A stretch of DNA of 64,000 nt from an uncultured bacterium (GCA_964422745.1 CAYRCK010000011.1:5068-69067); one strand, 5' to 3'; counted from the first letter of the stretch, positions 1 through 17,380 are shown. Translations and numbers: made by a program. The notes: a model not told the origin generated them from the sequence alone.

Positions 1-1791
1 ATCCAGGGAATCCTTATCCTCATCGCACTCACTTTCCGGCTCCGAGTCACTTGGATCTTCCATCTGCTCCGTGCCGGAAAATGCTTCTAATCCATTAAGG
101 CCGTCCTCACATTCATGATCGTTGCTGTCACATCCATCCAGTCCGGAGACAAGCAAATCCTGTATCTTGTCGAAGCGGCGGTTGGCCCCCGCCTCCAGCA
201 ACTCGATCAGCTCATCCCCGGGCTCCATGTCGACCGAATGCCGAACCTTGCAAGGTTCGGTCAAGAAATGATCACCAAAAGCAATGTAGAAATCCATTCC
301 GGTATATCGCTTGTTGATCTTGGATCCTTCGATAATGGCGTCGATCGCACCCTGAAAATCCTCTTCTCTCAGCGATATCATCCCCTTTAGGTAGTGCGCA
401 TCGCTGTGACCGCGGTCGAGGGAAAGGGCGCTTTCCAAATCGAATAGTGCCAGGGTCATACGGTTTAGCTTATAGTTCAGAAGCGCACGTTTTTCATATA
501 GAAGAGCACTTTTCCCCATAAACGCCTCCAGCCGCTGGAGGAGGTTTTCGGCCATCAGGTATTCTTCCTTGAATAATATGCACGTCATGAAGTTGTAATT
601 CAGCTCCATATTGTACAGATGCTTGTTCAAGCCCATCTTGAACATCTTCTCCGCATCCTCGAGAAGACCGACCTGATACAGAAGCACACCGATATTGTTC
701 ATGGCATCGGCATCCGTCGAATTGAGCCGGTAAGCCTGCAGATAACATATAGCGGCCTTTCGCAGGCTCCCCATGCGGTGGTACAGACACCCGCACAACC
801 TGTACGCGTCGGGATTCTCCCTGTTTTCCACCAAGGCCTTATGAAATGTGGACAGCGCCTTGTCATCGTTGTTATCAACCAGATGAACCTTGCCTATCTC
901 GATAAGAACACGGTCCTTGTCGGGCATCTCCTGAAGAGCTTTTCTGAACTCGTTCAAGGCCTCAGCGAGATACCCGCGCTCCCTGTAAGCGGAGCCGAGC
1001 GTAAAGGACGTGCTCTCGAGGCTAGGAATCTCCTTCCCCATTCCTCCACTCCCGTATTTCTCCCTTTCCTCCTCGCGATCGGAGAGCGCCAGGTTGGCCT
1101 CCGAGCTCTGGAACGTGGGATTCAGCCTAGACGCTATACGGCTTTCCTCCAGTGCCTCTTGGAGTTGACCAACATCGCCGTATGCGAAGGACAGGAGAAA
1201 ATGTGATCTCCAGTATTCGGCGTCCAGCTTTATGGCTTTTCTAAGCTCCGAGATCGTCTCCTCGGTCCTACCGAGGTTGTAGTAAATCTCCCCGAGATCG
1301 GTATGAAACACCGCGGATTTGGAGGCGTCCTTACTGACGTATTGGTAGTGCTCGAGCGCTTGCTGATAGAGCCCACGTGCTTTCAACACGCTGCCCAAGT
1401 GCATCCTGGCAAGAAAATGATCCGGCTTCTTCTCCACAATCCCACCAAAGGTCCTTGCAGCTTCCTCGAACCTTCCCATGTTTTGATAACTCACACCCAG
1501 TCTGAGAGCAGCCTCCATGCTTTCGGGATCTTTCTCGACCTCCGTCCTCCACCGGTTCACGTCCGGATCTTCCATCTTTGTTTCCTTGAATAGGAAACGG
1601 AGGTTTTCCCTTGCCAGATCGAATCTGGGATCGATTTTGACGGCTTCCTTGAATTGGGCTATCGCCTCTTCATACATCCCCTTTCTGAAGTACAATACCC
1701 CGAGATTATTCAATGCACCTGGATCGTTGCGATCCACCCTCGATGCAAAACTTTTAAGAACCTTATGATCCCTTTTCTTCAATTCAGCCAT
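1..1791 (-). CDS. TPR-repeat protein, last gene of the che operon (partial: C-terminus runs past the window start)
   Basis: Manual reverse-strand translation from the ATG at 1791 gives an uninterrupted frame to position 1 (MAELKKRDHKVLKSFASRVDRNDPGALNNLGVLYFRKGMYEEAIAQFKEAVKIDP...). TPR-like A/L/Y/G periodicity recurs throughout. The ORF track omits it because the window edge truncates it. The short plus-strand ORFs here (619..1206, 1303..1593 and others) are antisense artefacts. Confidence 0.7.
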   Translation of the reverse strand, partial: MAELKKRDHKVLKSFASRVDRNDPGALNNLGVLYFRKGMYEEAIAQFKEAVKIDPRFDLARENLRFLFKETKMEDPDVNRWRTEVEKDPESMEAALRLGVSYQNMGRFEEAARTFGGIVEKKPDHFLARMHLGSVLKARGLYQQALEHYQYVSKDASKSAVFHTDLGEIYYNLGRTEETISELRKAIKLDAEYWRSHFLLSFAYGDVGQLQEALEESRIASRLNPTFQSSEANLALSDREEEREKYGSGGMGKEIPSLESTSFTLGSAYRERGYLAEALNEFRKALQEMPDKDRVLIEIGKVHLVDNNDDKALSTFHKALVENRENPDAYRLCGCLYHRMGSLRKAAICYLQAYRLNSTDADAMNNIGVLLYQVGLLEDAEKMFKMGLNKHLYNMELNYNFMTCILFKEEYLMAENLLQRLEAFMGKSALLYEKRALLNYKLNRMTLALFDLESALSLDRGHSDAHYLKGMISLREEDFQGAIDAIIEGSKINKRYTGMDFYIAFGDHFLTEPCKVRHSVDMEPGDELIELLEAGANRRFDKIQDLLVSGLDGCDSNDHECEDGLNGLEAFSGTEQMEDPSDSEPESECDEDKDSLD

Positions 1792-1815
1792 ATACGGCCC
1801 TCTCTATCTGTAGGA

Positions 1816-2196
1816 TTAGACGTTCGCGGCCTGGTTGAGCACCTTGGTCACGACCTCGATGACACGAGAAGGATTGAACGGCTTAATCAAAAAATCCTTT
1901 GCTCCTGCATTCAATGCTTCCCTGACCAGAGCCTGCTGGCCGAGCGCACTGCACATGACAATCCTGGCTCCGGAATCCATCGATATTATCTCGCGTACCG
2001 CGTCTATTCCGTTCTTTTCCGGCATGATGATATCCATCGTGACGAGATCCGGCTTGAGCTCCTTGTAACAGTCGACAGCCTTCAATCCGGTATCCGCCTC
2101 TCCTATGACCTCCATACCGTTCTCAACCAGGATCTCGGAGATCATCTTCCTCATGAATATCGCGTCATCGACTACTAGCACATTGCCTTTAATCAC
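1816..2196 (-). CDS. cheY: Chemotaxis response regulator CheY (single REC domain)
   Basis: 126 aa beginning MIKGNVLVVDDAIFMRKMI. The DD pair, the phospho-acceptor Asp in VTMDIIMP, and the conserved Lys near the C-terminus are all present. It sits inside the che operon. Confidence 0.85.
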   Translation of the reverse strand: MIKGNVLVVDDAIFMRKMISEILVENGMEVIGEADTGLKAVDCYKELKPDLVTMDIIMPEKNGIDAVREIISMDSGARIVMCSALGQQALVREALNAGAKDFLIKPFNPSRVIEVVTKVLNQAANV

Positions 2197-2211
2197 AGCT
2201 GCTCCTTTCTT

Positions 2212-2829
2212 TTATTCCACTCCTAATGCATTGAAAATAACCTCGACTGACTCGGTAGTCGGAACGAAGAACAAAAATCCCTTGCATTCATCTCTTGCGA
2301 TCGTAAATGCCGTTTCCAAGACAAGCGCGTAGTCGGATTCGAAACTCAAATCCACGAGTATCGAATCCACGACGGCCCCGAGCATATCGTGCGATAACTG
2401 AGGGACGGAATGCATGAGCGGCTTCTCGACGAACGAGGCAAGGCTGTTGAGATAGCAACCGCACATTATGTTGCCGATCTCCTTGAGGACCGACAGGGAG
2501 TACTCGTCGTCCAGCTGATCGCCGTCCACATTCCTGCCCGTCGCCATCTCGACCATCCTCTTGGCCTCCGGATAGGGAAATATCAAGAACATCATCCCTC
2601 GGAAATCCTCGCTATACCCCTCGATATAGACAACCGACACCATTGATTCCGGTCCGTTGAATAACGTGTAAATGATCTGAAGCGGGATGATATCCACGTT
2701 CGTTATGGATATATCGACCCTTTTGTCAAGCAATTCCGAGAGTCCGGTCACGGCGTGTGCCGAACCGATATTCCCGATTTCCTTTAAAGCGTCAACTCTC
2801 AAGTACGACGGCCTCTTGATTTGATTCAT
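2212..2829 (-). CDS. cheC: CheY-P phosphatase of the CheC family
   Basis: Two copies of the CheC signature are present (ALKEIGNIGSAHAVTGLSELL and LKEIGNIMCGCYLNSLASF). The start is placed at the ATG on minus 2829 (MNQIKRP), which is preceded by AAGGTG. The listed ORF extends to 2922 and would overlap cheA. Confidence 0.7.
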   Translation of the reverse strand: MNQIKRPSYLRVDALKEIGNIGSAHAVTGLSELLDKRVDISITNVDIIPLQIIYTLFNGPESMVSVVYIEGYSEDFRGMMFLIFPYPEAKRMVEMATGRNVDGDQLDDEYSLSVLKEIGNIMCGCYLNSLASFVEKPLMHSVPQLSHDMLGAVVDSILVDLSFESDYALVLETAFTIARDECKGFLFFVPTTESVEVIFNALGVE

Positions 2830-4465
2830 TACCACACCTTCCTTCGAAGAAGATTCTTGGATCCCATATGAAGGCAATGTTCCCACTGCCCAATATTGTC
2901 GCACCCGACACGCCACCGGCACCCCTCACTATCGTTGGAAGACTCTTGATCACGACATCCTGCTGACCGACGATCCTATCCACAACGATCCCCAATGTCC
3001 CCTCGTCGATTTCAACAATGATGATCTTCATGTAACGTGATTCGCCTGAACTTGCGTCGAAATTGAAAACCTCCCATGGCTTCACCACCCTTACCGGACC
3101 ATCCCCTGAAGTGAATACCGTTTTACCACGGACGGTTTTCAGCAATGTTCGGTCTACGCGGACCGTTTCCCTCACATATTCGATCGGGAGCGCGTGAATG
3201 CTATCACCCACGTTGAATATGAGCGCCTTGATTATGGACAGGTTGATCGGCAGTTGCAGAAAAACAGTCGTTCCCTCCCCCTCAGTAGAATCTATTCGCA
3301 TGGAGCCGCCCAGGGAATCCGTCGCTTCCTTGACCACGTTCATCCCAATACCTCTGCCTGAATACCTGCTGATATTCTCTCTGGTGCTGAATCCGGGTGT
3401 CGTGAGTATTCTGCACAGATCCTCCTGCGATAGCTCCGGCTCGGAAATCCCGCCCGGCCCGTCGGGAGCCTCCCTTTTCATCACCTGCTTCAGATCTATT
3501 CCCCTTCCATCGTCCCGGACCTCGATGACGACGAAGTTTCTCTCCCTCTCGGCCTTGAGAACCAGTTTTCCCTCGGCTTTTTTCCCGGCTGCCTCACGCT
3601 CTTCCGGAGATTCAATGCCGTGATCGATGGCGTTTCTTATCAGGTGAATCAAAGGATCAACCATGTTCTCAAGGACGGTCCTGTCGAGCCCTATGTCTGA
3701 GCCTACGATTTCGTAGTTGACCTTCTTTCCGAGTTCTTTCGACACATCCCTGACCAGACGCTTGAATCTTTGAAATACTTGTCCGACCGGAACGAGCCTG
3801 GCCTCCACGACCTCTTTCTGAATATCCGAGATCATCCTCCCGGCAGAAGCAAGCTCTTCTATGAGTGGTTTTGAGTGTAGCTCACGTGCAATGCTCCCCA
3901 GGCGGATATGGCTGATTATCAGCTCGCCTACTATATCCATCAGAACATCCAAACGGTCCAGATCGACCCTGGTCGATTGGACGCTGGAATGATAGTCCCG
4001 TTGCTGTTCTCCGTCAGGAATCGCCTTTTTTTTCATTGATGAACCGATACTGATGGAACCGTCTCCAGATGAGATCTGACGGTTGCAGATCGGAGACAGG
4101 AGCTTCATGATCTCCGAGAGAATGTCCTCTTCCGAATTGCCTATACTGCCGTTCAACACGCACTCTACCAGCTCGCGGATCAGATCACTGGCACGAAGCA
4201 TGATATCCGCCTCACCCGGAGAAACGGTTATCTCTCCCTTTCTGTATCTATCCAGAACATTTTCCAGGGTATGACTCGCCCTCACCACGGATTCGTATCC
4301 CATGGCTCCCGACATGCCCTTCAGATTGTGGGCGTTACGGAACAGCTCATCTATGCAATCCTTCACATCCTCCTCGCTTTCGAGCTTCATCACCCCGTTC
4401 TCCAGGGCCTGGAGGATGTCCCGTGATTCATTCATGTAGAGCGTCTTATAGTCATTAACTTTCAT
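2792..4465 (-). CDS. cheA: Chemotaxis histidine kinase CheA (HPt, dimerisation, HATPase and CheW-like domains; apparently no P2 domain)
   Basis: HPt motif HNLKGMSGAMGY, HATPase motifs (RNAIDHGIE, DDGRGID, GRGIGMNVV) and a C-terminal CheW-like domain. At 557 aa the P1 domain is followed almost directly by P3. Confidence 0.9.
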   Translation of the reverse strand: MKVNDYKTLYMNESRDILQALENGVMKLESEEDVKDCIDELFRNAHNLKGMSGAMGYESVVRASHTLENVLDRYRKGEITVSPGEADIMLRASDLIRELVECVLNGSIGNSEEDILSEIMKLLSPICNRQISSGDGSISIGSSMKKKAIPDGEQQRDYHSSVQSTRVDLDRLDVLMDIVGELIISHIRLGSIARELHSKPLIEELASAGRMISDIQKEVVEARLVPVGQVFQRFKRLVRDVSKELGKKVNYEIVGSDIGLDRTVLENMVDPLIHLIRNAIDHGIESPEEREAAGKKAEGKLVLKAERERNFVVIEVRDDGRGIDLKQVMKREAPDGPGGISEPELSQEDLCRILTTPGFSTRENISRYSGRGIGMNVVKEATDSLGGSMRIDSTEGEGTTVFLQLPINLSIIKALIFNVGDSIHALPIEYVRETVRVDRTLLKTVRGKTVFTSGDGPVRVVKPWEVFNFDASSGESRYMKIIIVEIDEGTLGIVVDRIVGQQDVVIKSLPTIVRGAGGVSGATILGSGNIAFIWDPRIFFEGRCGNESNQEAVVLES

Positions 4466-5549
4466 GCATGTGTTCCGTATGTCTTAATTCCCTGATTTCC
4501 GTAGATATGCTCTCTGCAATCTCATGAAGAGGGACAATCCTGTCGGCATAACCCTCCTCGATAACAGCTCCGGGCATACCGAAGATCATGCTGGTCGCTT
4601 CATCCTGAGCTATGATTCTCCCACCGTACCTACGGATCGCGGCGCAACCGGCCAGCCCATCCTTGCCCATTCCGGTCAGCACAACACCAAGTAATCTCCT
4701 TTTGAATACAGGAGCGAACGATGTCATGGCGAAATCCAGAGAGGGACATGCGGTTTTCAATCGGACATTACGAGGGAGGAACATAACACCCGGCTCCCCG
4801 TCGTGATCGTCGTACAGGAGATGTCCTCCACCGGGCGCCACCAGCACCGTCCCCGGCAGGATCAGGTCGCCCTCTTCCGCTTCACGAACGGTCAGACCGG
4901 ATATACTGTCCAGTCTCTCGGCCAAGTAGCGTGTAAAATCGGGCGGCATGTGCTGTGTTATAATTATGCCGGCCGCAAGATCACCGGGAAGCCGCGGGAT
5001 GATATCCACCAGCGCATGCGGGCCGCCTGTGCTTGCCCCTATGATGACAACACCCGCCAGTTCTTTTGAATGCATCTTGGATCGCTTAATATCGAAATCA
5101 TACTCAGTCGGTGCGAATCTCACCTTGGAAACGTCGACCGCGGCCGCCAGCCTGACCTTGGATATGAGCTCTCCCACCGGAAAGCTCATTCCTTTTCTCG
5201 TCTTTGCCACGAAATCGACCGCTCCATACTCGAGGCTCGTCAGTGCCTCTCGAGCGCCCTCCGATTTATATGCGCTGAGAATGACAACGGGAGTCGGCCA
5301 TTCACTCATTATGTAGCGTAGCGTCTCGACACCGTCCATAAGGGGCATCTCCAGATCAAGTGTCACACAGTCCGGTTTTAATTCGACGATTTTCCTCAAC
5401 ACCTCCCTTCCGTCCTCCGCAGTACCGACGACCTTGATCCCGGGATCGCTTTCCAACGTGTCGATTATCATTCTACGCATGAAGGTCGAATCCTCTCCGA
5501 CAAGTACTTTAATCCTGCTTTTGTTCCTATCCCTGTCATCCTGTCCCAT
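4455..5549 (-). CDS. cheB: Chemotaxis methylesterase/deamidase CheB (REC plus CheB methylesterase domains)
   Basis: N-terminal REC domain (KVLVGEDSTFMRRMI ... VTLDLEMP) and the methylesterase active-site region VVIIGASTGGPHAL. It overlaps the cheA start by 11 nt and the cheD stop by 1 nt. Confidence 0.9.
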   Translation of the reverse strand: MGQDDRDRNKSRIKVLVGEDSTFMRRMIIDTLESDPGIKVVGTAEDGREVLRKIVELKPDCVTLDLEMPLMDGVETLRYIMSEWPTPVVILSAYKSEGAREALTSLEYGAVDFVAKTRKGMSFPVGELISKVRLAAAVDVSKVRFAPTEYDFDIKRSKMHSKELAGVVIIGASTGGPHALVDIIPRLPGDLAAGIIITQHMPPDFTRYLAERLDSISGLTVREAEEGDLILPGTVLVAPGGGHLLYDDHDGEPGVMFLPRNVRLKTACPSLDFAMTSFAPVFKRRLLGVVLTGMGKDGLAGCAAIRRYGGRIIAQDEATSMIFGMPGAVIEEGYADRIVPLHEIAESISTEIRELRHTEHMHES

Positions 5550-6055
5550 TAATAAATCTCCTTATTGCCGTATGCGTCTCTTACCTGAACACTCCCGTCC
5601 GAGACATCGAATACGATGCTTCTTCCCTTGGTTCCACCGACACATTCGGCCACTATCGGAATCCCTTCCCTGCCGAGCTCCAACCTTGCCGCATCGATAT
5701 TGGCGGTGCCTATCTGAACGATGCTCCTGCTGCCGGCAACGTGACTGAACATCCTGGCTCCTCCGAAAATCTTGGCCTCGAGCCTATCCCTCACGCCCCC
5801 CCTACTGAGCATCCTCGACACCATCAACTCGACCGCAGAATCAACAAACTTGGCTCTGTTGCAATTGTTCTTCACCTTGTTTCTCTCCGGGTGCATAACA
5901 TGCGCTAGAGCGCCTATTTTCGATCTCCGATCATATATCACTATCCCCAAACATGATCCCAGGGCCAACGTCATCATCCTCATGGGGGCCATTCCAATCC
6001 TGTACTGGGCCAGTCCAACCTTCACAAGCGGTCCCTTTATGCTGAAGTTAACCAT
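5549..6055 (-). CDS. cheD: Chemoreceptor glutamine deamidase CheD
   Basis: 168 aa with the CheD-family core (MAPMRMMTLALGSCLGIVIYD ... ALAHVMHP). Confidence 0.8.
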   Translation of the reverse strand: MVNFSIKGPLVKVGLAQYRIGMAPMRMMTLALGSCLGIVIYDRRSKIGALAHVMHPERNKVKNNCNRAKFVDSAVELMVSRMLSRGGVRDRLEAKIFGGARMFSHVAGSRSIVQIGTANIDAARLELGREGIPIVAECVGGTKGRSIVFDVSDGSVQVRDAYGNKEIY

Positions 6056-6134
6056 GTGTTGTCCGTCCGGAAACCGCGCCCGTTATCAAATGCCGGCACA
6101 CAGATGGAAGGGATACCGCTCCTTGCAATCGCCT

Positions 6135-6641
6135 CTATCCGGCCGTCTTGCAGTCCGAGGCCAGTTCCTTGATATTTTGCATGCCGTAAACCAGTTTGCC
6201 GGGATCAATACAGACGATCATCCTTCCCGACATCTCGATTATTCCTATTACCGTATCGCCGCAATCATGCTCATCCCGAATATCGGGAGAGGATTTAATA
6301 GAATCCGGCGAGACCCTGACGACCTCCATGACTTGATCCACGATAAATCCAAATCCTCCACCCTCCGAATCCAGGATAATCACGCGCCTCTTTTTAGGTT
6401 CAGTCTCCAGCTCGGTTTCGATCCCCAGGATCTCATGGATTCTTATTACCGGAACGATCTCCCCGCGAAGGTTGATCACACCCTCGAGAGGATTTTCCAT
6501 TCCCGGAACATGGAACGTTTCCATCGGACGAATGATCTCCTTGACCATCCATACCGGAATCCCGTAATTTTCTTCACCGAGCTTGAATGTAACCAGCTGT
6601 ATATCCTGCTTGCGGCTTCCGCCGCCTTTTTCTAAATCCAT
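6135..6641 (-). CDS. cheW: Chemotaxis coupling protein CheW
   Basis: CheW domain (GIPVWMVKEIIRPMETFHVPG...VINLRGEIVPVIRIHEILG). The start is set at the internal Met (MDLEKGGG), preceded by GGAG. The listed ORF reaches 6728 and would overlap the MCP. Confidence 0.8.
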   Translation of the reverse strand: MDLEKGGGSRKQDIQLVTFKLGEENYGIPVWMVKEIIRPMETFHVPGMENPLEGVINLRGEIVPVIRIHEILGIETELETEPKKRRVIILDSEGGGFGFIVDQVMEVVRVSPDSIKSSPDIRDEHDCGDTVIGIIEMSGRMIVCIDPGKLVYGMQNIKELASDCKTAG

Positions 6642-6669
6642 GTTTCTCACTCCAGATCCTTCGCTGCGA

Positions 6670-8346
6670 TCAGATAGTTGTTGCGCCCTCCACCTGGAAA
6701 CCATCAACCGAAGAGAAGCACCTGACATGCTCCCTTAGTTGTATGGCGAGTTCGCTTAGTTTTTGCGCTGAAGACGCTACATCCTCCATACTCGAACTCA
6801 TCTGCTCCATGGATGCGGCGGTTTCCTGTGTGGAAGAGGCGTTCTTGCCGGCGCTGCCCGATATTTCATCGATGGAGCCGATAACGTTATTCATACCTCG
6901 GCTCAGCTCCCTGGTCGCCGCCGAGATGCGCCTGACCATATCGCTGGAACTGTTCAGTACCTGAACGATTTCATCCAGTGAACCTCCGGTTCTGGTGATG
7001 ACTTCCTTACCCTCGGTTACTTCCTTCGAACCCAGCTCGATACTCCTGACCGCTGTATGGGTGTCCTCCTGGGTCTGCTGGATCAACGACGCAATCTCTT
7101 CGGCGGCTTTTGCGCTGCCTTCCGCCAGCTTCCTCACCTCGTCGGCGACGACGGCGAATCCGCTACCCGCTTCACCCGCCCTGGCCGCCTCTATAGCGGC
7201 GTTGAGAGCAAGTAGATTCGTCTGATCCGCTATATCCGTGATCACGTCCACGATCTCACCGATCTGATTGGATCTTTCCCCTAGATGACGTATTATCTCC
7301 GCGGATTCCTTTATGACATTGTAAATCTCGTTGATCTTCTCAACGGCCTCTTTTGCCGAATCCCCGCCCTTAGTTGCAGTTTCCGATGCGTTTGCAGCTG
7401 CGGACGCCGCCAGCTCGGCGCTGTTCACTACCTGTTTCACCGAGCGTTCCATATTCTTGATTTCCCTGGTCATTTCCTCCACCTTTTGCGCCTGCAGATC
7501 CGAGGACTTTGCAATGTTCTGTACAGTGAAGGATGTCTCTTCGGAAATTGAATTTACTTCCTCGGTGGAGGCTGAAAGCCCCTGTGCAGACATATTGACC
7601 TTGTCGGACGTGTCACGGATCAATCTGATGATCGAGTTGATATTATTGAATATTTCGTTAAGCTTCGAGGCCAGTTCCCCCAGCTCGTCGTCGGAATTTA
7701 TCTCTATCCTCTCACTGAATTCTCCCGCATTCATAGCCAGGGCCGTGCTTTTGCCGATTATCCTGCGCAGCGGTTTTTTAACCACAAAATATATAATTGA
7801 GCTGTATATCAAGCAGAGAACCGTCATGCTGATAGCCACCGCCATAAACACGGATAAACGCATGCTCGAATGCATTTCTTTCTCAATGCCATCTTCAAAC
7901 GATATCCTTACCTTCTTTTGACCGCTCGTTCCGAGCGGGAACACGGCCTCGAGATGCTCCTTCTCCGGTACCGCGCGATTGCCTCCAGTTGCGTCCACCA
8001 GGGCTGCATCGGTGGGCATTAGATCCGCGGATACCAGAACGTTGCCGGAAGAGTCCAGGATTTCTATTCCCCCTATACAGGGATAGATATTTTTGAGCTT
8101 CTCCGTCGTTTTCAGAAGTTCCTCCTGGCTTTCATCACCCCCGACCGAGGACAACGCCGAAGATATCGACGCAGCCATAAGACTGCTCCTTCTCTTCTGC
8201 GCTTCCGTTACATTCTTGTCTGCAATTCTTTCGATTGCAAAAGTGACGAAAAGGCAGAGAATCAAACCAACCGTCATCGTTGCATAAATGATCCTGCTGT
8301 TTATGGATCTTCCTATTTTGAAGAAACTCATTCTAGACCTCCTCAA
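6670..8346 (-). CDS. Methyl-accepting chemotaxis protein (two transmembrane segments, periplasmic sensor, HAMP and MCP signalling domains)
   Basis: N-terminal TM segment, a sensor of about 150 aa, a second TM segment and HAMP. The highly conserved MCP hairpin motif [33 protein letters not shown] is present. Confidence 0.85.
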
Positions 8347-9181
8347 AGCGAATCGGATTTAACCTCTTCCTGTAGATCTTGCTGCGGGGAACGACCAGCT
8401 CGAATATTTCCATCCCTTTGCTCGTTACCGCTTCACACTTGCCCAAGATAAGAATCCCTCTTTCATTCAACGAAGCACCGAAATTGCCGATCACATCATC
8501 GCGCACGGAATGGTTGAAATGTATGAGCACATTCCGGCAAACGACCAGATCCAGCATCGTGAAAGGTGATTTTGAAAACAGATCGTGCACAATGAATTTC
8601 ACATTGCGCCTGATCCTATCGGAGATCCGGTAACCATCACTGCAGGTTTGAAAGTAGCGCGGCCTAAGGATATGAGGTGGCACATACTTCACCTTGCTTT
8701 CGCTGTAAATTCCCGCCCTGGCAACAGAGCAGGAATCCTCCGATACATCGGTGCCGAAAACCTCTATTCCCAATGGAAGCGTTTCTTTTTGTATTAGATG
8801 ATCCAGAAGAATCGCTATGCTGTATGCCTCTTCGCCCGTGGAGCACCCGGCGCTCCAGACCCTGATAGTATTATAACCCGACATCCGTTTTCTCTCGACC
8901 AATCCGGGGAATACTTTCTTGGTTATGGCTTCGAAGACATCACTATCGCGGAAAAACTCCGTAACGTGTATCGTCACGGTATCGAGCAGCTCATCTATCT
9001 CCCCGGGAGCCTCTCTGAGCCTGTCTAAATAATCATCGAGGTTACGGCAGGACAGTTGCGCCATTCTGTGCCATACCCTTCGTCTCAAGCATGAACAACG
9101 GTATTTGGAAAAATCGATTCCATGCCTCGTGCGCACGAATTCGATCAATTCACCTATGTCCAGAACGTTGCTCGATACCAT
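8333..9181 (-). CDS. cheR: Chemotaxis protein methyltransferase CheR
   Basis: CheR N-terminal helical domain and SAM-methyltransferase core ([21 protein letters not shown]). It is the first gene of the minus-strand che operon. Confidence 0.85.
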
Positions 9182-9327: not shown

Positions 9328-9525
9328 TTAAAGCACCTAGCTTCAATTATAGATAAATCATCGGGCGTCCCTGGTATTGTGATAACTAACTTAATTAAAG
9401 ATAGTTGCTTGTGAGGAACCAGAAATCGAAAGACCGAATAGGGAAGGATTGGGAAGTATAGAGATAATCAAGTAATTATGCACCGCTATATTGCTTTTTG
9501 CAATCGAGGTGCCGTGGAGGATGAC

Positions 9526-10524
9526 ATGCATGATTTAACGATCAAATACGTCGACGCCTTTACAACAAATACATTCAGCGGCAATCCGGCCGCTGTGATA
9601 ACTGACGCCGCAGGACTCACAATCGAGGAGATGCAAAGCATAGCAAAGGAAATCAATATCTCTGAGAGCACGTACGTCACTAAACCGGAATCTAAAAACG
9701 CGATGTTCCGGATAAGATTCTTCACTCAGAGCAATCAGCTCGATCTGAGTGGACACGCAGTCATCGCTACCTGCTACGCCCTAATCGAGGAGGGTAGAGT
9801 GCGGCTGGATGACGGAAAGACCACCGTTATGATTGAAACCAACCTGGGTGATGTACCTCTGGATATTTATTTCTCCAAGGATACATACCAAGGAAACGCC
9901 GATAGCACCACCGGGAACCGTGACGGAAAGATTCTGAATGGTGTCAACAAAGGCAGGCTCGATCGCATAATGATCCATCAGGATGCCGGAACTCACGAAA
10001 AATCCAGGATATCCATAGAAGAGATTTCAGATATCCTGGATATCGATCCCATGGAAATCAAAATGACGGGACTACCGATGGAATTCGTCTCGAACGGCCA
10101 GCACCAATTCATGATACCGGTCGGACACAGGGAAACCCTTCTCAACCTGAAACCGGATCTGATAAGACTGAGCTTAATGAACGCTAGATACGGAATAGAG
10201 ACAAACGACATCTTCACTCTCGATTCAATATCCGAGGAATGCATCTCATACTCCAGGCATTTCGCCCCTGCGATCGGACTATGGGAAGACCAGGGTTCGG
10301 GCAATGCCGCAGCAACGATCGGGACTTATCTGACGAGGCACGGAATCACCTCTACAAGAAACATGATAATGGAGCAGGGTAAAGATGTGCACAAGCTGGC
10401 CAGGATATTCGTTGAGATAGACTATGCCGACGGCTCCTTCAATTCCGTTAAGATGGGCGGACTTGCAACAACTTCCATATCACGAAAGATCAATGTATCC
10501 GAAGGCAAGGTAGTGATAATTTAG
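9526..10524 (+). CDS. PhzF-family isomerase (phenazine biosynthesis PhzF/YddE-like fold)
   Basis: MHDLTIKYVDAFTTNTFSGNPAAVI ... ESTYV ... FRIRFFT is the typical PhzF N-terminal half, and the C-terminal half is also present. The start is placed at an internal Met; the ORF track begins at 9478. Confidence 0.8.
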   Translation: MHDLTIKYVDAFTTNTFSGNPAAVITDAAGLTIEEMQSIAKEINISESTYVTKPESKNAMFRIRFFTQSNQLDLSGHAVIATCYALIEEGRVRLDDGKTTVMIETNLGDVPLDIYFSKDTYQGNADSTTGNRDGKILNGVNKGRLDRIMIHQDAGTHEKSRISIEEISDILDIDPMEIKMTGLPMEFVSNGQHQFMIPVGHRETLLNLKPDLIRLSLMNARYGIETNDIFTLDSISEECISYSRHFAPAIGLWEDQGSGNAAATIGTYLTRHGITSTRNMIMEQGKDVHKLARIFVEIDYADGSFNSVKMGGLATTSISRKINVSEGKVVII

Positions 10525-12640: not shown

Positions 12641-13014
12641 TCCGTGATGGACTGATGGGTATACCGAAAGTGCGCCGTCGTCGGACGAGATAACATAACA
12701 TCTACGGTTAAGCGCCGTGGAATCCGCATTGACGCTTAAGTTGCTGAAAATACAATTCGTTCGTCAACCGGCTAACGGAGCGCAAGATGCAGGAAATATT
12801 CCATTTTATTGGCAACCGGGACATCTTTCTAGAGCGGGAAGTCTAATGGAGGGAATAAGCGCATATCCCCTTGATCGATCGCCGATCGCAAAGGCGCACC
12901 CGGCATCTCAGAGATGGCAGAAACTAAGGATGGATATGTCTATAGTGAAATGATAGGCCGGCCCGCGTATGAGCCGTGGAATAACGGTGGCGGCTTTAAG
13001 ATTTATAATGGCGG

Positions 13015-14658
13015 CTATTTCTTGAAGGAGAACCTGCTCTTGAAATGTCTGAGCTTTAGATCCCTCCCGTACTCGACGTTGACACCGGGCACCTTATCCC
13101 TGAATTCATTGAGGATCTTTATCGACTCAACTACCGAGAAAAGATCCTGATCCTCGTATGTCAGCCGGGGCACGGCGGCTCTGACGAAATTAACGCGAGG
13201 CTCGGGTGGGATCTCTCTCTTACCGTCGAATCTGCCGAAGGCATATGTCCCGAGTTCACATACCCTGTGCCCCGCAATCAGCAAAAGTGCCGTAAAAGCT
13301 ATACCCATGAATTCGCCGCTTTCACCGGCGCCATCGAAGAACCTGTCCATATCGATATAAACTGCATGTCCACCCGCCGGCTTGATTACGGGGATCCCAC
13401 TATCCGACATCTTTTCGGCGAACCTTCTTACCTGGCCTATCCTGGCCTCGAGGTAATCCCTTCCCGTAACCGTACGCAGACCGCAGGAGATACCCTTCAG
13501 ATCTCTCCCGGCGAGCCCTCCGTATGTCGGGTGTCCCTCAGTCATAATTTGAAAATCTACAAGCTTCTCCCTGAAATGCGGGAATATCGAATCGAACAGG
13601 CTGTCACTCTTGATGCACATTGCACCACCGATGTTGACGAGACCGTCCTTCTTGAGACTGATATGAAAGCCGTCCACGTGTTCGAACATCTCGTGGACGA
13701 TTTCACCGATCTCCTTAACCGCATAACCCTCTTCATTGCGTTGAATGAACCAGGCGTTTTCAGCGAACCTGCATGCATCGAAGAAGAACGGTATACGATG
13801 GCGTTCGGCTATGCCGTGGATCTCTCTAATATTAGCCATCGAAACGGGCTGCCCGCCGCCGGTGTTGTTGGTTATCGTAAGATAAATAAGCGGCACCCTG
13901 TCCGGTTCGTTCTCCAGTAGGTTCTCGAGCTCCTCCGTATTCAAATTCCCACGGAAGAAGAAATTCTCGTTGTTCGCTATATGCTCTTTACAGGGCATAT
14001 TAAGGGGTATCATCATCTTGTCTTCTATGTTACCTTCTGTCGTATCGAAATGGGAATTGCTCGGAATAATATGGAACGGCCTGTTATCCGCTCCTGTATC
14101 CCTCCGGTTGACCGAGATCTTCGATTCGATCCTCTCTCTCAACCCTTCAAGTAGTCCGTTCGAGAGAGCCCTTGCCGTTCCCTCCGGCCTGTTTTGAAGC
14201 TCCCTGCGCAGAACCGAGAAAAAAGCGTTTTCGGCAGCCCTGCCCTGATGAAATATGAAAAGGTTTTCATCTCCTACAATACCGGAGCCTTCTCCACCCA
14301 TCCACCCACTTCCGAATGTGCTGCCAAACTGCTCTTTCATCTCGAAGTAGCCCTGGTTGGAGCCATATGCCTCATCGCCCATGAGCATTGCCGCCCATTG
14401 CTGAATTGTCATCGTGGTCGTTCCGGAATCGGAGAGGAGATCACAGCCCGGTATCTTGTCTGCTCTGAACAGGAAGGGATTGAGTCCGGCTTCACCAATG
14501 AGAATATCCCTTCTCTCCTCGAACTCCTCGATCGAGCAGTCCCTGAAACGAACAGCAGCGTTCCTGTACGGTCTGGGCCTGAAATAATCGCCCGGCAGAA
14601 ATTCCTTTTTGAGATTCTCTCGAAACTTGGAGATGAAAAAATCAACCTTTCGAGACAT
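13015..14658 (-). CDS. Beta-eliminating lyase family protein (tryptophanase / tyrosine phenol-lyase-like, PLP-dependent)
   Basis: It aligns by eye to TnaA: DSGTTTMTIQQWAAMLMGDEAYGSNQGYF, HQGRAAEN, FFFDACRFAENAWFI, and the PLP-lysine region SLKKDGLVNIGG. At 547 aa it carries two insertions relative to E. coli TnaA. Confidence 0.8.
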   Translation of the reverse strand: MSRKVDFFISKFRENLKKEFLPGDYFRPRPYRNAAVRFRDCSIEEFEERRDILIGEAGLNPFLFRADKIPGCDLLSDSGTTTMTIQQWAAMLMGDEAYGSNQGYFEMKEQFGSTFGSGWMGGEGSGIVGDENLFIFHQGRAAENAFFSVLRRELQNRPEGTARALSNGLLEGLRERIESKISVNRRDTGADNRPFHIIPSNSHFDTTEGNIEDKMMIPLNMPCKEHIANNENFFFRGNLNTEELENLLENEPDRVPLIYLTITNNTGGGQPVSMANIREIHGIAERHRIPFFFDACRFAENAWFIQRNEEGYAVKEIGEIVHEMFEHVDGFHISLKKDGLVNIGGAMCIKSDSLFDSIFPHFREKLVDFQIMTEGHPTYGGLAGRDLKGISCGLRTVTGRDYLEARIGQVRRFAEKMSDSGIPVIKPAGGHAVYIDMDRFFDGAGESGEFMGIAFTALLLIAGHRVCELGTYAFGRFDGKREIPPEPRVNFVRAAVPRLTYEDQDLFSVVESIKILNEFRDKVPGVNVEYGRDLKLRHFKSRFSFKK

Positions 14659-15682
14659 CGAAAAGCTCCTTTGAAGACAAATGCATTATATCTCTTACCT
14701 CTTCCATGGTTGATCTTGCGATCTTCCCGGCCCTTGCCGCACCATCGGTCAATATTTCTACAATGAGTCCGGGTTGTCCTTCCAGCTCCACACGTCTTTC
14801 TCTTATCGGGGAGAGAGCCCCGTTCATCCTGTCGGCAAGTTCCATCTTGCAATCCACGCAACCCCTATCACCACCCTCACATTCCGTTCTGATCGATTCC
14901 AGTACCGCCAGGCTGTAGATATTGTGAAACGCGTATACAACGCAACCTTCGGGATGACCCTTGTCGTTTTTCCTGATCTTCTGAGGATCCGTAAACATTT
15001 CCCTTATCTTCGCGGTCGTTTCCTTCTCGCTGAACGATAGGGCTATATAGTTACCGGCACTCTTGCTCATCTTCCTGTCCACTCCGTCCAGGCCCGGCAC
15101 CTTCGGGACCTCGGTCAGCAATGTCTCCGTAATCGGAAAGACCTGCTTACCGTACATACTGTTGAACCTCTGGGCCAGATCCCTTGTCATGTTTACATGT
15201 GCCTCTTGATCCCTGCCCACGGGGACGTAATCCCCCTTGTAGAGCAGGATATCGGCCGACTGAAGAGTCGGATAGCCGAGAAGGCCGTAACTCGGTGACT
15301 CTATCCTGTAGCTTTGGACCATTTCCCTGTACGTCGGATTTCTCTCGAGCCATCCGAGCGGTGTGACCATGGAAAAAAGCAGATGCAGCTCGGCAACTTC
15401 AGGTACGTGGGACTGGACGAATATAGCGCTCTTCCCCGGATCTAGACCGGCCGATATCCAGTCGAGTGCCATCTCCCATATATTACGGTTGAGGGCTTCA
15501 AGGTTCTCGTAACCGACGGCGTTCCCACCGCCGGGAGTCGTCAGCGCATGCCAATCCACAATGAAATAGTAGCAATCGTAATCGTCCTGGAGCGCTATCC
15601 AGTTATTCAGTGCGCCGTATAGATTTCCCAGGTGGAGGCTGCCGGTTGGCCTCATTCCGCTTGTTACCCTCTTCTTGGGCAT
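14642..15682 (-). CDS. trpS: Tryptophanyl-tRNA synthetase, with a C-terminal Cys4 motif resembling Fe-S-type TrpRS
   Basis: HIGH motif (GSLHLGN) and KMSKS motif (KMSKSAGN). The start is at MPKKRVTSG with a perfect AAGGAG seven nt upstream. The C-terminus carries C-x20-C-x6-C-x2-C (CVVYAF...ECEGGDRGCVDC). Confidence 0.9.
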   Translation of the reverse strand: MPKKRVTSGMRPTGSLHLGNLYGALNNWIALQDDYDCYYFIVDWHALTTPGGGNAVGYENLEALNRNIWEMALDWISAGLDPGKSAIFVQSHVPEVAELHLLFSMVTPLGWLERNPTYREMVQSYRIESPSYGLLGYPTLQSADILLYKGDYVPVGRDQEAHVNMTRDLAQRFNSMYGKQVFPITETLLTEVPKVPGLDGVDRKMSKSAGNYIALSFSEKETTAKIREMFTDPQKIRKNDKGHPEGCVVYAFHNIYSLAVLESIRTECEGGDRGCVDCKMELADRMNGALSPIRERRVELEGQPGLIVEILTDGAARAGKIARSTMEEVRDIMHLSSKELFDVSKG

Positions 15683-15748
15683 TACATTCTCCTTATGAGC
15701 CGCTCGACGGGAATCATACAGCAATTACAGTGATTGTTAACAAAAAAA

Positions 15749-15822
15749 TAGGGGTGGCAGGACTCGAACCCGCAGCCCCCGGTTTTGGAGACCGGTGCTC
15801 TAGCCACTTGAGCTACACCCCT
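15749..15822 (-). tRNA. tRNA-Trp, anticodon CCA, no encoded CCA tail
   Basis: The reverse complement folds manually into a cloverleaf: AGGGGTG-TAGCTCAAGTGGCTAGAGCA-CCGGT-CTCCAAA-ACCGG-GGGCT-GCGGG-TTCGAGT-CCTGC-CACCCCT-A. A 7-bp acceptor stem, TTCGAGT T-loop and CCA anticodon are all present. It lies 66 nt upstream of trpS on the same strand. Confidence 0.9.
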
Positions 15823-15928
15823 GATTCCGTTTAATCCTCCACAAAAATACCACTTAGCAATCGAATGTCAAGCCATTTGGCCCGCCGGGAAAGACCTTCC
15901 GATCCCTTGAAGCAGATCATTTCAAGGA

Positions 15929-17380
15929 TCAGGCAAGCTCCTCCAGAACCGCTGTAAGAAGCTTCCAGAACGTCCCGACGGATTCTATGTTGACCCTCTC
16001 CTCAGGGGAGTGCGGATGCTCTATCCAAGGACCGATCGAGATCATATCCATACCGGGGAATTTCTCTCCTATGATACCGCATTCGAGGCCCGCATGGATC
16101 GCCTTCATCTCGGGCTCCTTGCCGAACTGTTCCTTGTGAACCTTCTTGACCACGGCCAAGAGATTCGAGTCCAGATTCGGCTTCCAACCCGGATATGCTT
16201 CCTCTATATCGATCTGTGCTCCCGCCAGCTCCGATATCGAACGGATCGTCTCTCTCAATGCACCCAGGGCGCTTGATATCGAGCTTCTCGTCGAAGTGCA
16301 GATCACCATCTCGTTTTCGCTCGTGCCGACGGTCGCCAGGTTATTGGACGTTTCAACGAGGTTCTCTATATCGTAGCTCATGGCATGTACCCCGTGCGGA
16401 ATACCTTCGAGAAGATTCAGGGCCTTCATCTGTGTGCCCGCATCCATAACCTTCTGAGCCTTCTCGCCTGCAGGTTCGAGACCGATCGCTAGATCATGCT
16501 CCCTTCCGCCCAGCTCGGCACTGATATATTCCTTTTCCTCCCCGATGATCTCTTTTACCTCGTCAACCGCCGTATCCAGGACATACAGCTCCGCCTCAGC
16601 TTCACGCGCTATTGCGTTTCTCTTGTTTCCGCCATTGATCCCAGCAAGATGGCATGGCTGAGTCCTTACAAGCCTGAGAAGAATTCTCGTCAGGATCTTG
16701 AGTGCATTTCCTCTCTGTTCGGATATATCGATCCCTGAATGTCCGCCCCTTAGACCGGTCACCTTGAGCAGAAACCTCTTGGTACCGGCAGGCGCATCCG
16801 TAAAGGTCAGGGGCAGCTTGATTACAGAATCACCACCACCTGCACAACCGATATACACTTCGCCTATCTCCTCGCTGTCGAGGTTCAGCATGATCTTTCC
16901 CTTGACGAAACCCGCTTCGAGTTTTCCGGCGCCCGTCAGGCCCACTTCCTCGTCAACCGTACAGAGTATCTCCAGCGGTCCATGCACATACTCATTCTCC
17001 TCCGCAAAAGTCAGCGCAGCCGCCAATCCTATGCCGTTATCGGCGCCGAGCGTCGTGCCTTTCGCGGTAACCCAGCCCTCCTTGACCTCCAGGTCCAGTG
17101 CATCCTTCGAGAAATCATGGTCTACATCTGAGTTCTTCTCACAGACCATGTCCATGTGCCCCTGGAGAACGACCGTCGGTGCTTTCTCGTGACCCTTTGT
17201 AGCTGGGATACGGATTACGACGTTCCCGTTCTTATCCTTATCCGCTTCGAGATTCTTATCCCGGGCATACGAGAGAAGGTGATCCGCAAGCTGTTCCTCG
17301 TTACCCGAACAGTGCGGTATAGAAGTAATCTTTTCGAAATGCTCCCAGAGCGCCTTCGGTTCGAATCCACTCAAAACCAT
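15929..17380 (-). CDS. pepD: Aminoacyl-histidine dipeptidase PepD (M20C family, Xaa-His dipeptidase)
   Basis: It is co-linear with PepD: WEHFEKITSIPHCSGNEEQLA ... VVLQGHMDMV ... GTTLGADNGIG ... VHGPLEILCTVDEE. Confidence 0.8.
   Translation of the reverse strand: MVLSGFEPKALWEHFEKITSIPHCSGNEEQLADHLLSYARDKNLEADKDKNGNVVIRIPATKGHEKAPTVVLQGHMDMVCEKNSDVDHDFSKDALDLEVKEGWVTAKGTTLGADNGIGLAAALTFAEENEYVHGPLEILCTVDEEVGLTGAGKLEAGFVKGKIMLNLDSEEIGEVYIGCAGGGDSVIKLPLTFTDAPAGTKRFLLKVTGLRGGHSGIDISEQRGNALKILTRILLRLVRTQPCHLAGINGGNKRNAIAREAEAELYVLDTAVDEVKEIIGEEKEYISAELGGREHDLAIGLEPAGEKAQKVMDAGTQMKALNLLEGIPHGVHAMSYDIENLVETSNNLATVGTSENEMVICTSTRSSISSALGALRETIRSISELAGAQIDIEEAYPGWKPNLDSNLLAVVKKVHKEQFGKEPEMKAIHAGLECGIIGEKFPGMDMISIGPWIEHPHSPEERVNIESVGTFWKLLTAVLEELA

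Follow-up and report, generated by a model that had tools for sequence, protein, structure and literature searches.

The window, a 64-kb stretch of DNA from an uncultured sediment bacterium of the Krumholzibacteriota, carries a tRNA-Trp gene, the gene for tryptophan--tRNA ligase (trpS) and a gene for a tryptophanase-like enzyme (the lyase) in close succession on one strand (Table 1). The tRNA gene, supported by Rfam (RF00005, 67 bits, E=1.9e-13), is the only tRNA gene that ARAGORN finds in the 64 kb. Its end is separated from the trpS ATG by 66 nt (15683..15748) that open with TTTTTTT (15748..15742). The trpS frame, 14642..15724(-), opens at an upstream TTG. Its likely start is the ATG at 15682, because AAGGAG stands at 15694..15689 and because this sequence, in four other assemblies, was independently called as encoding the 346-aa product. 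The lyase frame, 13015..14658(-), starts with an ATG whose RBS (AAGGAG, 14671..14666) lies inside trpS. With the lyase ATG at 14658 and the trpS stop codon, TGA, at 14644..14642, the two genes overlap by 17 nt, which implies that their translation would be coupled. This anatomy agrees with an earlier note on the same DNA, which had described a beta-eliminating lyase of 547 aa with insertions relative to TnaA, the 17-nt overlap with the 3' end of trpS, and tRNA-Trp(CCA) 66 nt upstream of trpS and followed by a T-run.

Table 1. Features of the tRNA-Trp, trpS and lyase locus, in window coordinates.
Feature	Position	Strand	Basis or remark
Sigma-70-type promoter-like site, TTGACA, 16 nt, TG-TATTTT	15844..15871	-	About 21 nt 5' of the tRNA; candidate promoter for all three genes
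tRNA-Trp, anticodon CCA	15749..15822	-	ARAGORN and Rfam RF00005
7-T run, directly 3' of the tRNA	15742..15748	-	Putative 3'-processing or leaky termination signal
Rest of the 66-nt tRNA-trpS spacer, with trpS RBS AAGGAG at 15694..15689	15683..15741	-	Sequence
trpS, tryptophan--tRNA ligase, 346 aa	14642..15682	-	Gene call, PF00579, TIGR00233
trpS-lyase junction, with lyase RBS, lyase ATG and trpS stop	14642..14671	-	Sequence
Long-form tryptophan indole-lyase (tryptophanase) homologue, 547 aa	13015..14658	-	Profiles, residues, model
Conserved motif AAAATGGAATATTTCCTGC in the lyase-to-histidine-kinase spacer	12789..12807	-	Spacer alignment of the window, L167 and L172

The gene directly upstream of the unit is pepD, and genes for a GAF-PAS kinase and PhzF and che genes lie downstream. 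The kinase gene call begins about 400 nt past the lyase stop, and the motif AAAATGGAATATTTCCTGC between them marks a putative separate regulatory region of the kinase, hence the predicted downstream boundary of the unit. Membership of the kinase in the operon was considered and rejected because a conserved motif of its own precedes it and it keeps its position where the lyase is absent. The surrounding window is rich in peptidases (PepD and members of the C1, S49 and S9 families) and includes phosphate acetyltransferase/acetyl-CoA genes.

The trpS product has the features of a bacterial tryptophan--tRNA ligase: the class Ib domain (PF00579, 204 bits), an equivalog score above cut-off (TIGR00233, 273.2 bits against 176.75), and both the HLGN (HIGH-type) and KMSKS motifs. 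Its best match in the PDB is the Thermotoga maritima enzyme (2g36, E=3e-86), and the four cysteines of its C-x20-C-x6-C-x2-C motif align with the cluster-binding cysteines of that protein. The motif published for [4Fe-4S] TrpRS, in the anticodon-binding domain, is C-x(21-24)-C-x6-C-x2-C, with a first spacing of x22 in T. maritima (PMC2954223); the x20 found here falls just below this range. That paper reports no linkage of T. maritima-type TrpRS to a lyase or a tRNA. The window protein is probably the ordinary tryptophan--tRNA ligase of the cell, of the four-cysteine, Fe-S type. An apparent second, specialised trpS paralog proved spurious: P0146 and P0194, on one 308-kb contig, are a single gene with differing start calls. 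The tRNA has the cloverleaf and CCA anticodon of bacterial tRNA-Trp, and its CCA end is not encoded. The usual identity element for bacterial TrpRS is the discriminator G73, but the window tRNA has A73, as do all 15 related Krumholzibacteriota-type tRNA-Trp genes; G73 occurs in the Melioribacteraceae locus L007.

The lyase matches PF01212, the beta-eliminating lyase domain of fold-type I PLP enzymes (180.9 bits against a cut-off of 27, E=4.5e-53), and, in NCBIfam, the tryptophanase subfamily NF009709 (452.6 bits against 285); these matches uphold the family assignment made in the earlier note. Its scores against the TnaA equivalogs are far below cut-off (TIGR02617, 290.5 bits against 825.8; NF053783, 330.6 against 750), which places it in a divergent clade and not as a close TnaA ortholog. 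It shares family and fold with E. coli TnaA at 33% identity, and adds an N-terminal extension of about 20 aa and two insertions, of about 12 aa at 118-130 and about 45 aa at 150-195. The residues that correspond to E. coli Tyr74, Asp137, Lys270, Arg419, His463 and Phe464 are identical. Lys337 (preceded by Lys336), Asp294, Arg297, Arg493 and Tyr98 are the counterparts of Lys270, Asp223, Arg226, Arg419 and Tyr74; this PLP and catalytic set is invariant among relatives and fills all the roles examined, namely the PLP lysine, the PLP-N1 aspartate, the carboxylate-binding arginine and the general-acid tyrosine of the partner subunit. The indole-binding pair is Asp205 and His538, the latter followed by Phe539 (E. 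coli Asp137, His463 and Phe464), and Arg140 (E. coli Arg103), Phe204 and Asn265 also align with TnaA. With all PLP and indole-NH residues present, the lyase is predicted to interconvert L-tryptophan and indole, pyruvate and ammonium. Two active-site changes are specific to its clade: His376 (Phe in E. coli) and Cys467 (Val in E. coli).

Among solved structures, the long-form gut tryptophanase of Butyricicoccus sp. BIOML-A1 (8sl7) is the best match both for the lyase sequence (E=4e-88) and for an AF2 model of it (pTM 0.85; TM 0.76). Both proteins are long, about 550-570 aa, and carry extra segments in the same region; they are about 34% identical, and 8SL7 has Asn where the window clade has His376. 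In a neighbour-joining tree, 8SL7 and Asgard-archaeal sequences form the sister group of this clade and fall outside it. Citrobacter freundii tyrosine phenol-lyase has the same fold and PLP machinery, and the sequence score against its model (TIGR02618, 291.9 bits against a cut-off of 720.7) is similar to that against TnaA. We nevertheless reject this identity, since all three phenol-binding residues, Thr124, Arg381 and Phe448, are swapped for tryptophanase equivalents, Asp205, Leu469 and His538. Judged by these residues, the basis on which the earlier note had proposed to decide between tryptophan and tyrosine, the enzyme is tryptophanase-like and not tyrosine phenol-lyase-like, and the grouping with tyrosine phenol-lyases that would have undone that note's proposal therefore falls away.

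The promoter-like site before the tRNA matches at 10/12 positions, with an extended -10 TG (pattern scan). A single match of this kind does not exceed shuffle expectation, and the evidence is its conservation: TTGAC[AT]-N17-TAnnAT stands at the same position in 12/13 related loci inspected (it is not evident in L104), and also in the lyase-less L167. The tRNA-trpS spacers of relatives measure 31-90 nt and hold no conserved promoter. A candidate internal trpS promoter at 15740..15713 (pattern scan) was dismissed, as it is not conserved and these spacers are too short for it; so was a hairpin with T-run at 14667..14644 (pattern scan) as a terminator, being neither significant nor conserved in relatives. 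Nearly all related loci, again including L167, have T-rich sequence after the tRNA, and the pattern scan did not detect the 7-T run of the window as a canonical hairpin-plus-T terminator. The genes thus lie on the same strand with overlap or minimal spacing, behind one conserved promoter and with no internal terminator found. That trpS and the lyase are co-transcribed has strong comparative support in the stop-start overlap and internal AAGGAG of relatives, described below. Co-transcription of the tRNA with both is supported as well, because the conserved promoter lies 5' of the tRNA, the spacers are short and promoterless, and the tRNA stands mid-unit in L007. The comparisons thus support the co-transcription that the earlier note had thought probable, but the coordinated control of tryptophan catabolism and charging that it suggested is not established. 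No Rfam family, T-box or riboswitch matched the tRNA-trpS spacer or the trpS-lyase junction at E<=1, and the folds of the spacer (z=0.34) and the junction (z=-0.49) are no more stable than those of shuffled sequences. A riboswitch, T-box or attenuator at these sites was rejected on both grounds.

Looking across relatives, tRNA-Trp and trpS lie directly upstream in 12/12 close lyase orthologs with enough upstream DNA and in 0/59 canonical tryptophanase loci, so that the synteny check called for in the earlier note came out in favour of the trio. A 1-nt stop-start overlap (TGATG/TAATG) with an internal AAGGAG is kept in most loci (>15) and is upheld across about 65% protein identity; other trpS-lyase junctions have an 8-nt overlap (L174) or gaps of 2-35 nt. 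In another phylum the order differs: L007 has trpS, 10 nt, tRNA-Trp, 40 nt and the lyase, and its TrpRS is 35% identical to that of the window and has no Cys motif. This rearranged trio with a different TrpRS type means that chance or simple synteny does not explain the linkage, and on this comparison the clustering of tRNA-Trp, trpS and lyase is more than chance. An Eisenbacteria locus retains a trpS remnant directly upstream of the lyase. Adjacency fades with distance, as 16/19 clade members at 55-63% identity and 40/42 at 45-54% are not beside trpS. The clade, marked by His376, occurs in Krumholzibacteriota, Latescibacterota, WOR-3, DPANN archaea and CPR bacteria. Among genes other than trpS, no neighbour is universally conserved in the clade; ClpB, GlnRS, SerRS, PFOR-like and ferredoxin genes are lineage-specific, and in distant members the adjoining gene is that of a PFOR-beta-like TPP enzyme in L015 and of a 4Fe-4S ferredoxin in L010. 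Among seven relatives sampled via trpS, three (L167, L173 and L175) lack the lyase, and the next gene then comes directly after tRNA-Trp-trpS. Judging from these loci, the lyase is an optional accessory third gene, lost or never gained in some close relatives. Recent horizontal acquisition was considered and rejected: the GC content of the lyase gene is in line with that of its neighbours, and lyase divergence parallels TrpRS divergence. One complete genome among the relatives, CP070727.1, is without the lyase.

We tentatively prefer a reading, held at a little under even confidence, in which promoter, tRNA-Trp, trpS and tryptophanase form one unit and the lyase clears surplus tryptophan. The conserved, near-consensus sigma-70 promoter before the tRNA would drive all three genes, presumably as a single transcript. 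The tRNA would be cut from this primary transcript, in keeping with the unencoded CCA and the U-rich trailer, and the U-run would probably let only part of the transcripts continue. Translational coupling on one mRNA would then yield TrpRS and lyase at a fixed ratio. Both enzymes would draw on one pool of free tryptophan, and the low-Km synthetase would probably be supplied ahead of the lyase. The latter, whose Km would be high as is usual in its family, would remove surplus tryptophan derived from peptides and feed pyruvate to fermentation. It would be made in proportion to the translation machinery and not under a tryptophan-sensing switch. The peptidases and phosphate acetyltransferase/acetyl-CoA genes of the window, the PFOR-beta-like and ferredoxin neighbours in L015 and L010, and the dispensability of the lyase in L167, L173 and L175 fit such a role, and to our knowledge every enzyme with these residues that has been characterised has a catabolic role. 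Against it, known tna operons are tryptophan-induced and permease-bearing, and a constitutive tie to the synthetase and tRNA of the enzyme's own amino acid, with no induction element or permease, would be an odd design. Translational coupling in a fixed ratio to a synthetase of moderate expression is more fitting for a supply enzyme than for one of bulk catabolism, and the clade is also present in DPANN archaea and CPR bacteria, organisms that are not known to make amino acids. The T-run could also be a real terminator, and the site at 15740..15713 a genome-specific trpS promoter, either of which would count against a single unit. The low equivalog scores (290 bits against 826) and the His376 and Cys467 substitutions also count against this reading.

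Alternatively, the lyase may be mainly synthetic, salvaging environmental indole and handing tryptophan to TrpRS and tRNA-Trp, with indole and serine or cysteine, or indole, pyruvate and ammonium, as substrates. We regard this as possible, if on the unlikely side. Newton and Snell, in the 1960s, reportedly found that tryptophanase allows E. coli mutants in tryptophan synthase to grow on indole, but we know of no characterised family member that runs synthetically in nature. The reaction is reversible (PMC11301627), so that the layout is at least as natural for a supply role as for catabolism. The order of tRNA, synthetase and enzyme and their conserved coupling would match supply to charging demand; the trio was also assembled with a different TrpRS type and gene order in Melioribacteraceae, it has no tryptophan-inducible leader or permease, and the clade reaches DPANN and CPR genomes. 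However, synthesis depends on serine at a high level or on pyruvate together with ammonium, and no gene for serine supply or indole uptake recurs consistently beside the lyase; three close relatives manage without it, and the PFOR-like and ferredoxin neighbours point to pyruvate production. The fuller form of this idea seems unlikely to us: a self-contained supply-and-charging cassette, with the lyase an in vivo indole-salvaging tryptophan synthase coupled stoichiometrically, perhaps physically, to the Fe-S TrpRS and the A73 tRNA-Trp.

The layout could instead be a historical accident, in which a catabolic tryptophanase landed 3' of a housekeeping tRNA-Trp-trpS pair and was then inherited with no functional meaning. 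The flanking genes (pepD; GAF-PAS kinase, PhzF and che genes) are conserved just as well as the trio in the same genomes, so that synteny is generally stable in this lineage; the lyase is dispensable, and most clade members (16/19 and 40/42, as above) are not beside trpS. We still judge an accident improbable, because adjacency to trpS and the single cognate tRNA amounts to about 2 in several thousand genes per event, at least two arrangements arose with unrelated TrpRS subtypes, the Eisenbacteria trpS remnant lies directly upstream of a lyase, and the stop-start overlap has persisted across so much protein divergence. Less probable still is a substrate other than tryptophan, the enzyme being a cysteine/serine (or S-alkylcysteine) beta-lyase that makes pyruvate and sulfide, or acting on a modified tryptophan. 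The failure of the equivalog models for both TnaA and TPL and the clade-specific His376 and Cys467 would allow it, and tryptophanases accept S-ethyl-cysteine and other beta-substituted amino acids (PMC11301627). In P. vulgaris tryptophanase, however, Asp133 and His458 have roles in indole binding and catalysis, and residues of this type matter for turnover of tryptophan, not of S-ethyl-cysteine (PMC11301627). Their counterparts Asp205 and His538 show no variation in the 160 related loci examined, which speaks for selection on the binding of indole, and the link with trpS and tRNA-Trp is in itself specific to tryptophan.

Compared with known systems, the unit apparently is a real, lineage-specific operon built from known kinds of parts. 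Our search of the literature found no description of a trpS-tryptophanase operon, in line with the view in the earlier note that this is not a standard arrangement, and nothing relevant on indole salvage by tryptophanase or on tryptophan metabolism in Krumholzibacteriota/Latescibacteria. The E. coli tnaCAB operon pairs the enzyme with the TnaC leader peptide and the TnaB permease; here the partners are trpS and tRNA-Trp. Neither leader peptide nor permease occurs at the window locus: there is no room for the former because the lyase start lies inside trpS, no TnaB homolog appears in the window or in 160 related loci, and the window and 1.5 Mb of related loci contain neither trp biosynthesis genes nor a tryptophan permease. 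Unlike tnaCAB, the unit also shows no tryptophan-sensing element by Rfam or spacer fold. The closest likeness in layout is pylT-pylS-pylBCD, where the genes for tRNA-Pyl, PylRS and pyrrolysine synthesis are demonstrated to be biosynthetic and add a new amino acid; there too a cognate tRNA, its synthetase and then an amino-acid enzyme lie on one strand as one unit, but tryptophan is a canonical amino acid and the lyase, as third gene, comes from a catabolic family. In E. coli thrU-tyrU-glyT-thrT-tufB, tRNA genes share a promoter with a downstream translation-related protein gene, yet no cognate relation links those tRNAs to the protein. In Firmicutes, charging and supply are coordinated through tRNA-Trp by a T-box that controls trpS, whereas the window unit has no T-box or other Rfam element.

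If the single-unit reading is right, a tRNA would naturally be expressed as one package with its cognate synthetase and with an enzyme that controls how much of their amino acid is available, and we know of no described example of such a package for canonical amino acids. Tryptophan is the rarest and costliest amino acid, and the unit offers a testable handle on its management in uncultured anaerobes. It also bears on whether tryptophanase homologues beyond gut and enteric models make or consume indole, with consequences for reading metagenome 'tnaA' counts as indole production. Should the lyase belong to a supply cassette, peptide-fermenting sediment bacteria could turn indole from the environment into tryptophan and do without a trp pathway, and DPANN and CPR organisms with the same lyase clade perhaps likewise. 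The analysis further defines a large, uncharacterised clade of long-form tryptophanases marked by His376, and natural presence/absence variants, such as CP070727.1, ease comparative tests.

The tRNA-Trp(CCA) gene, trpS and the lyase gene follow one another on the minus strand, between a dipeptidase gene and a histidine kinase gene. The tRNA gene is the sole one within the 64-kb window; the spacer that separates it from trpS measures 66 nt in total, with a run of seven Ts abutting the tRNA 3' end. Independent gene calls on four other assemblies carrying the same sequence also predict the 346-aa and 547-aa products, and the coordinates and distances of the earlier note are all correct.

Features of the locus and of the wider window (window positions)
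Feature	Position	Strand	Remarks
Promoter-like site (TTGACA, 16 nt, TG-TATTTT)	15871..15844	-	Consensus match
tRNA-Trp(CCA)	15822..15749	-	tRNA scan; Rfam 67 bits
trpS, 346 aa	ATG 15682 to TGA 14644..14642	-	AAGGAG ribosome-binding site
Beta-eliminating lyase, 547 aa	ATG 14658 to 13015	-	Own AAGGAG; start 17 nt inside trpS
pepD, M20 dipeptidase	15929..17380		Upstream neighbour
GAF-PAS histidine kinase			Downstream neighbour, about 400 nt beyond the lyase; then PhzF-like gene, chemotaxis operon
Near-palindromic element AAAATGGAATATTTCCTGC	12789-12807	-	Upstream of kinase; candidate operator or promoter element
Hairpin over lyase start, 10 bp	14644-14667	-	Followed by GATTTTTTCA
Chemotaxis and PhzF regions	2212-9181 (-), 9478-10524 (+), 55294-56187 (-)
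Peptidase and acetate-gene regions	36060-38240, 40402-42129, 42205-44640, 46089-47951, 52855-55062

With the lyase as bait, species-representative genomes and metagenomes each yielded 80 loci, in which we scored the presence of trpS and tRNA genes. The related sequences all come from metagenome-assembled genomes, with taxon labels as in the sequence records. The clustering of the three genes that the earlier note described is retained at every close lyase ortholog with sufficient upstream DNA and is absent around canonical tryptophanases.

Genes upstream of the lyase, counted where 1.1 kb or more of upstream sequence was available
Identity to the window's lyase	trpS directly upstream	tRNA-Trp upstream
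>=64%	12/12	12/12
55-63%	3/19	2/19
45-54%	2/42	1/42
<45% (canonical tryptophanases, many phyla)	0/59	0/59

Several of these loci matter because general conservation of synteny cannot explain them. L007 (Melioribacteraceae) has trpS first, then tRNA-Trp after 10 nt and the lyase after a further 40 nt, and the tRNA gene has no room for a promoter or terminator of its own. The TrpRS of L007 is 35% identical to that of the window and lacks its cysteine motif, and the tRNA-Trp has G73; thus, the same three functions were joined from different parts. In L006 (Eisenbacteria; 1146-1540) an IS3/rve-like transposase fragment takes the place of most of trpS, and the last ~54 trpS codons lie directly upstream of a 580-aa lyase whose insertion is even longer. 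The lyases of L102 and L104 are more divergent (57% identity), yet they too lie downstream of trpS.

Because lyase-based retrieval is biased, relatives were also sampled through trpS. The lyase occupies the same slot in four of the seven related genomes obtained in this way (L168, L171, L172 and L174). In the other three (L167, L173 and L175) the kinase gene directly follows tRNA-Trp-trpS, and no lyase remnant is detectable. These three, which include the complete 4.13-Mb genome CP070727.1 (L167, locus 101289-112314), keep pepD/Aldedh, tRNA-Trp, trpS, kinase and PhzF, and so provide natural presence/absence variants for the lyase. tRNA-Trp-trpS is thus the core of the unit, to which the lyase gene, always in the same slot, adds an accessory third member. 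In a neighbour-joining tree of TrpRS built, like our other trees, from trimmed alignments, the lyase-less genomes fall at two separate places among lyase-bearing ones, which implies that the lyase was lost at least twice or gained twice. Nothing in the GC content suggests that the gene was transferred recently. The near-palindromic element upstream of the kinase recurs in L167 (~6130-6150), where no lyase intervenes, and in L172 (~6780-6800), and is thus retained with or without the lyase. The kinase, which has no adjacent response regulator, is probably separate from the unit; PhzF and the che operon follow it in all relatives. The window's chemotaxis operon is complete (cheC/X, cheA, cheB, cheD, cheW, MCP, cheR), and there are two PhzF-family paralogs.

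Conserved consensus matches, on which our promoter and terminator statements are based, suggest that the tRNA, trpS and the lyase are most likely all transcribed from one promoter, in agreement with the co-transcription proposed in the earlier note. A TTGAC[A/T] hexamer, ~17 nt and a TAnnAT-like hexamer precede the tRNA by 20-40 nt in 12 of 13 related loci that we inspected (the exception, L104, shows no evident element) and in the lyase-less L167. The tRNA-trpS spacers are short (31-90 nt), and all share just a T-rich start and a ribosome-binding site; a promoter-like match inside the window's spacer has no counterpart in related loci and was set aside. Among the close loci, the stop codon of trpS and the start codon of the lyase nearly always overlap by one base (TGATG/TAATG), with AAGGAG a few bases upstream; the overlap is 17 nt in the window and 8 nt in L174. 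Stop-start overlap is a classic signature of translational coupling, and this pattern is preserved over ~65% protein identity. No Rfam families besides tRNA were found, and the tRNA-trpS and trpS-lyase junctions fold no better than shuffled sequence. The hairpin over the lyase start was matched in a terminator scan and rejected, as its fold does not surpass those of shuffles and it is not conserved; it could modulate lyase translation in the window's genome only. The T-run after the tRNA is kept in loci with and without the lyase. It probably serves 3' processing of a CCA-less tRNA precursor or acts as a leaky stop, either of which would raise the level of the tRNA above that of the mRNA. L104 (3288-3540) has two tandem tRNA-Trp(CCA) copies with few differing positions, 419 nt upstream of trpS-lyase, and its AT-rich spacer to trpS lacks a T-run.

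The lyase scores above the cut-offs for PF01212 and the NCBIfam tryptophanase subfamily and below those of the TnaA and tyrosine phenol-lyase (TPL) equivalog models. The two equivalog scores are nearly equal, so residues must decide. We derived equivalences from alignment with E. coli TnaA (NC_000913) and PDB chains, whose sequences were rebuilt from HMMER alignments and cover the aligned parts, with F448 restored in the 2ycp variant. Lyase residues Tyr98, Arg140, Asp205, Asp294, Arg297, Lys337, Arg493 and His538-Phe539 correspond to TnaA Tyr74, Arg103, Asp137, Asp223, Arg226, Lys270, Arg419 and His463-Phe464, respectively. All three positions that discriminate TPL from tryptophanase carry the tryptophanase residue: Asp at TPL Thr124, Leu at Arg381 (Ile396 in E. 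coli) and His at Phe448. The family assignment of the earlier note thus stands, on the tryptophanase-like rather than the TPL-like side. In tryptophanase crystal structures, this Asp binds the indole NH and is itself bound by the His, and mutating either residue severely impairs activity on tryptophan but spares that on S-ethyl-cysteine (PMC11301627). The signature is found in 160 of 160 related loci examined. An AlphaFold model (pTM 0.85, mean pLDDT 77) best matches 8SL7, a long-form tryptophanase from Butyricicoccus sp., followed by TPL and TnaA structures. The lyase clade stands out by His376, where E. coli has Phe and TPL has Met288, and by its one or two insertions and short N-terminal helix; in a neighbour-joining tree, its sister group holds 8SL7 and Asgard-archaeal sequences, with canonical tryptophanases outside both. 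From its sequence, we infer that the protein is a divergent, fully equipped tryptophan indole-lyase.

The TrpRS is probably an iron-sulfur enzyme. Residues ~237-268 form a C-x20-C-x6-C-x2-C motif, kept in relatives such as the TrpRS P0146, and all four of these cysteines align with the [4Fe-4S]-binding ones of its closest counterpart, the Fe-S TrpRS of Thermotoga maritima (2g36). Every Krumholzibacteriota-type tRNA-Trp (window, L001, L002, L004, L081-L091, L104 and L167-L175) has discriminator A73; the CCA end is not encoded, and in nearly all of these loci a T-rich tract lies 3' of the gene. G73 is the usual bacterial TrpRS identity element, and it is possible that the A73 tRNA co-evolved with the Fe-S-type TrpRS.

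The case for a tRNA-Trp-trpS-lyase unit is solid; it involves no new mechanism, and its tRNA, its bacterial TrpRS and its tryptophanase-family enzyme all belong to known kinds. From the tnaCAB operon it is set apart by its partners and its control. The earlier note did not recognize the arrangement as a standard operon, and the literature that we searched, with incomplete coverage, likewise did not describe a trpS-tryptophanase unit, with or without tRNA-Trp.

Made together, the TrpRS and a lyase predicted to interconvert tryptophan and indole would draw on one pool. We lean, tentatively and short of an even chance, towards removal of surplus tryptophan as the lyase's role, because all characterized enzymes with its residue signature are catabolic, because it is dispensable, because distant clade members adjoin a PFOR-like TPP enzyme or ferredoxin, and because the surrounding genes are those expected of a peptide fermenter (PepD, C1, S49 and S9 peptidases, phosphate acetyltransferase, acetyl-CoA genes). 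Usual Km values are micromolar for synthetases and sub-millimolar for tryptophanases; with such values, charging would be served first and excess tryptophan alone cleaved. The layout itself is better explained if the lyase salvages indole to supply tryptophan, although overall we consider this rather unlikely. The order tRNA, synthetase, enzyme would be analogous to the pyl cassette, fixed-ratio coupling fits matching of supply to demand, neither Trp-inducible control nor a permease was found, and the clade has members in DPANN and CPR genomes.

Alternatively, the lyase gene may have hitch-hiked neutrally, an improbable reading, weakened by the independent Melioribacteraceae arrangement. That the substrate is something other than tryptophan seems more improbable still, given the invariant Asp and His. 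Bearing on the preferred reading, surplus removal, the wider gene content points to a peptide-fermenting lifestyle: the window encodes a papain-family C1 peptidase with a lectin-like domain, an S49 SppA, an S9 prolyl oligopeptidase, an 811-aa protein in which phosphate acetyltransferase is joined to part of an acetate-kinase domain, and an acetyl-CoA hydrolase/transferase that carries a fused GNAT domain.

Elsewhere in the clade, L015 (Paceibacterota, CPR; 559-4708) has two tandem lyase paralogs after a PFOR-beta-like TPP enzyme, and in L010 (WOR-3; 7482-7985) the lyase stop borders directly on a gene for a 4Fe-4S ferredoxin. Such neighbours are consistent with the lyase producing pyruvate in these two lineages. 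GlnRS lies directly downstream of the lyase in a WOR-3-like group (L013, L017 at about 7459-9165, L148 and L159), and SerRS is convergent to it in L012 (Aenigmatarchaeota; 7457-8740). These adjacencies may be due to chance in translation-rich small genomes.
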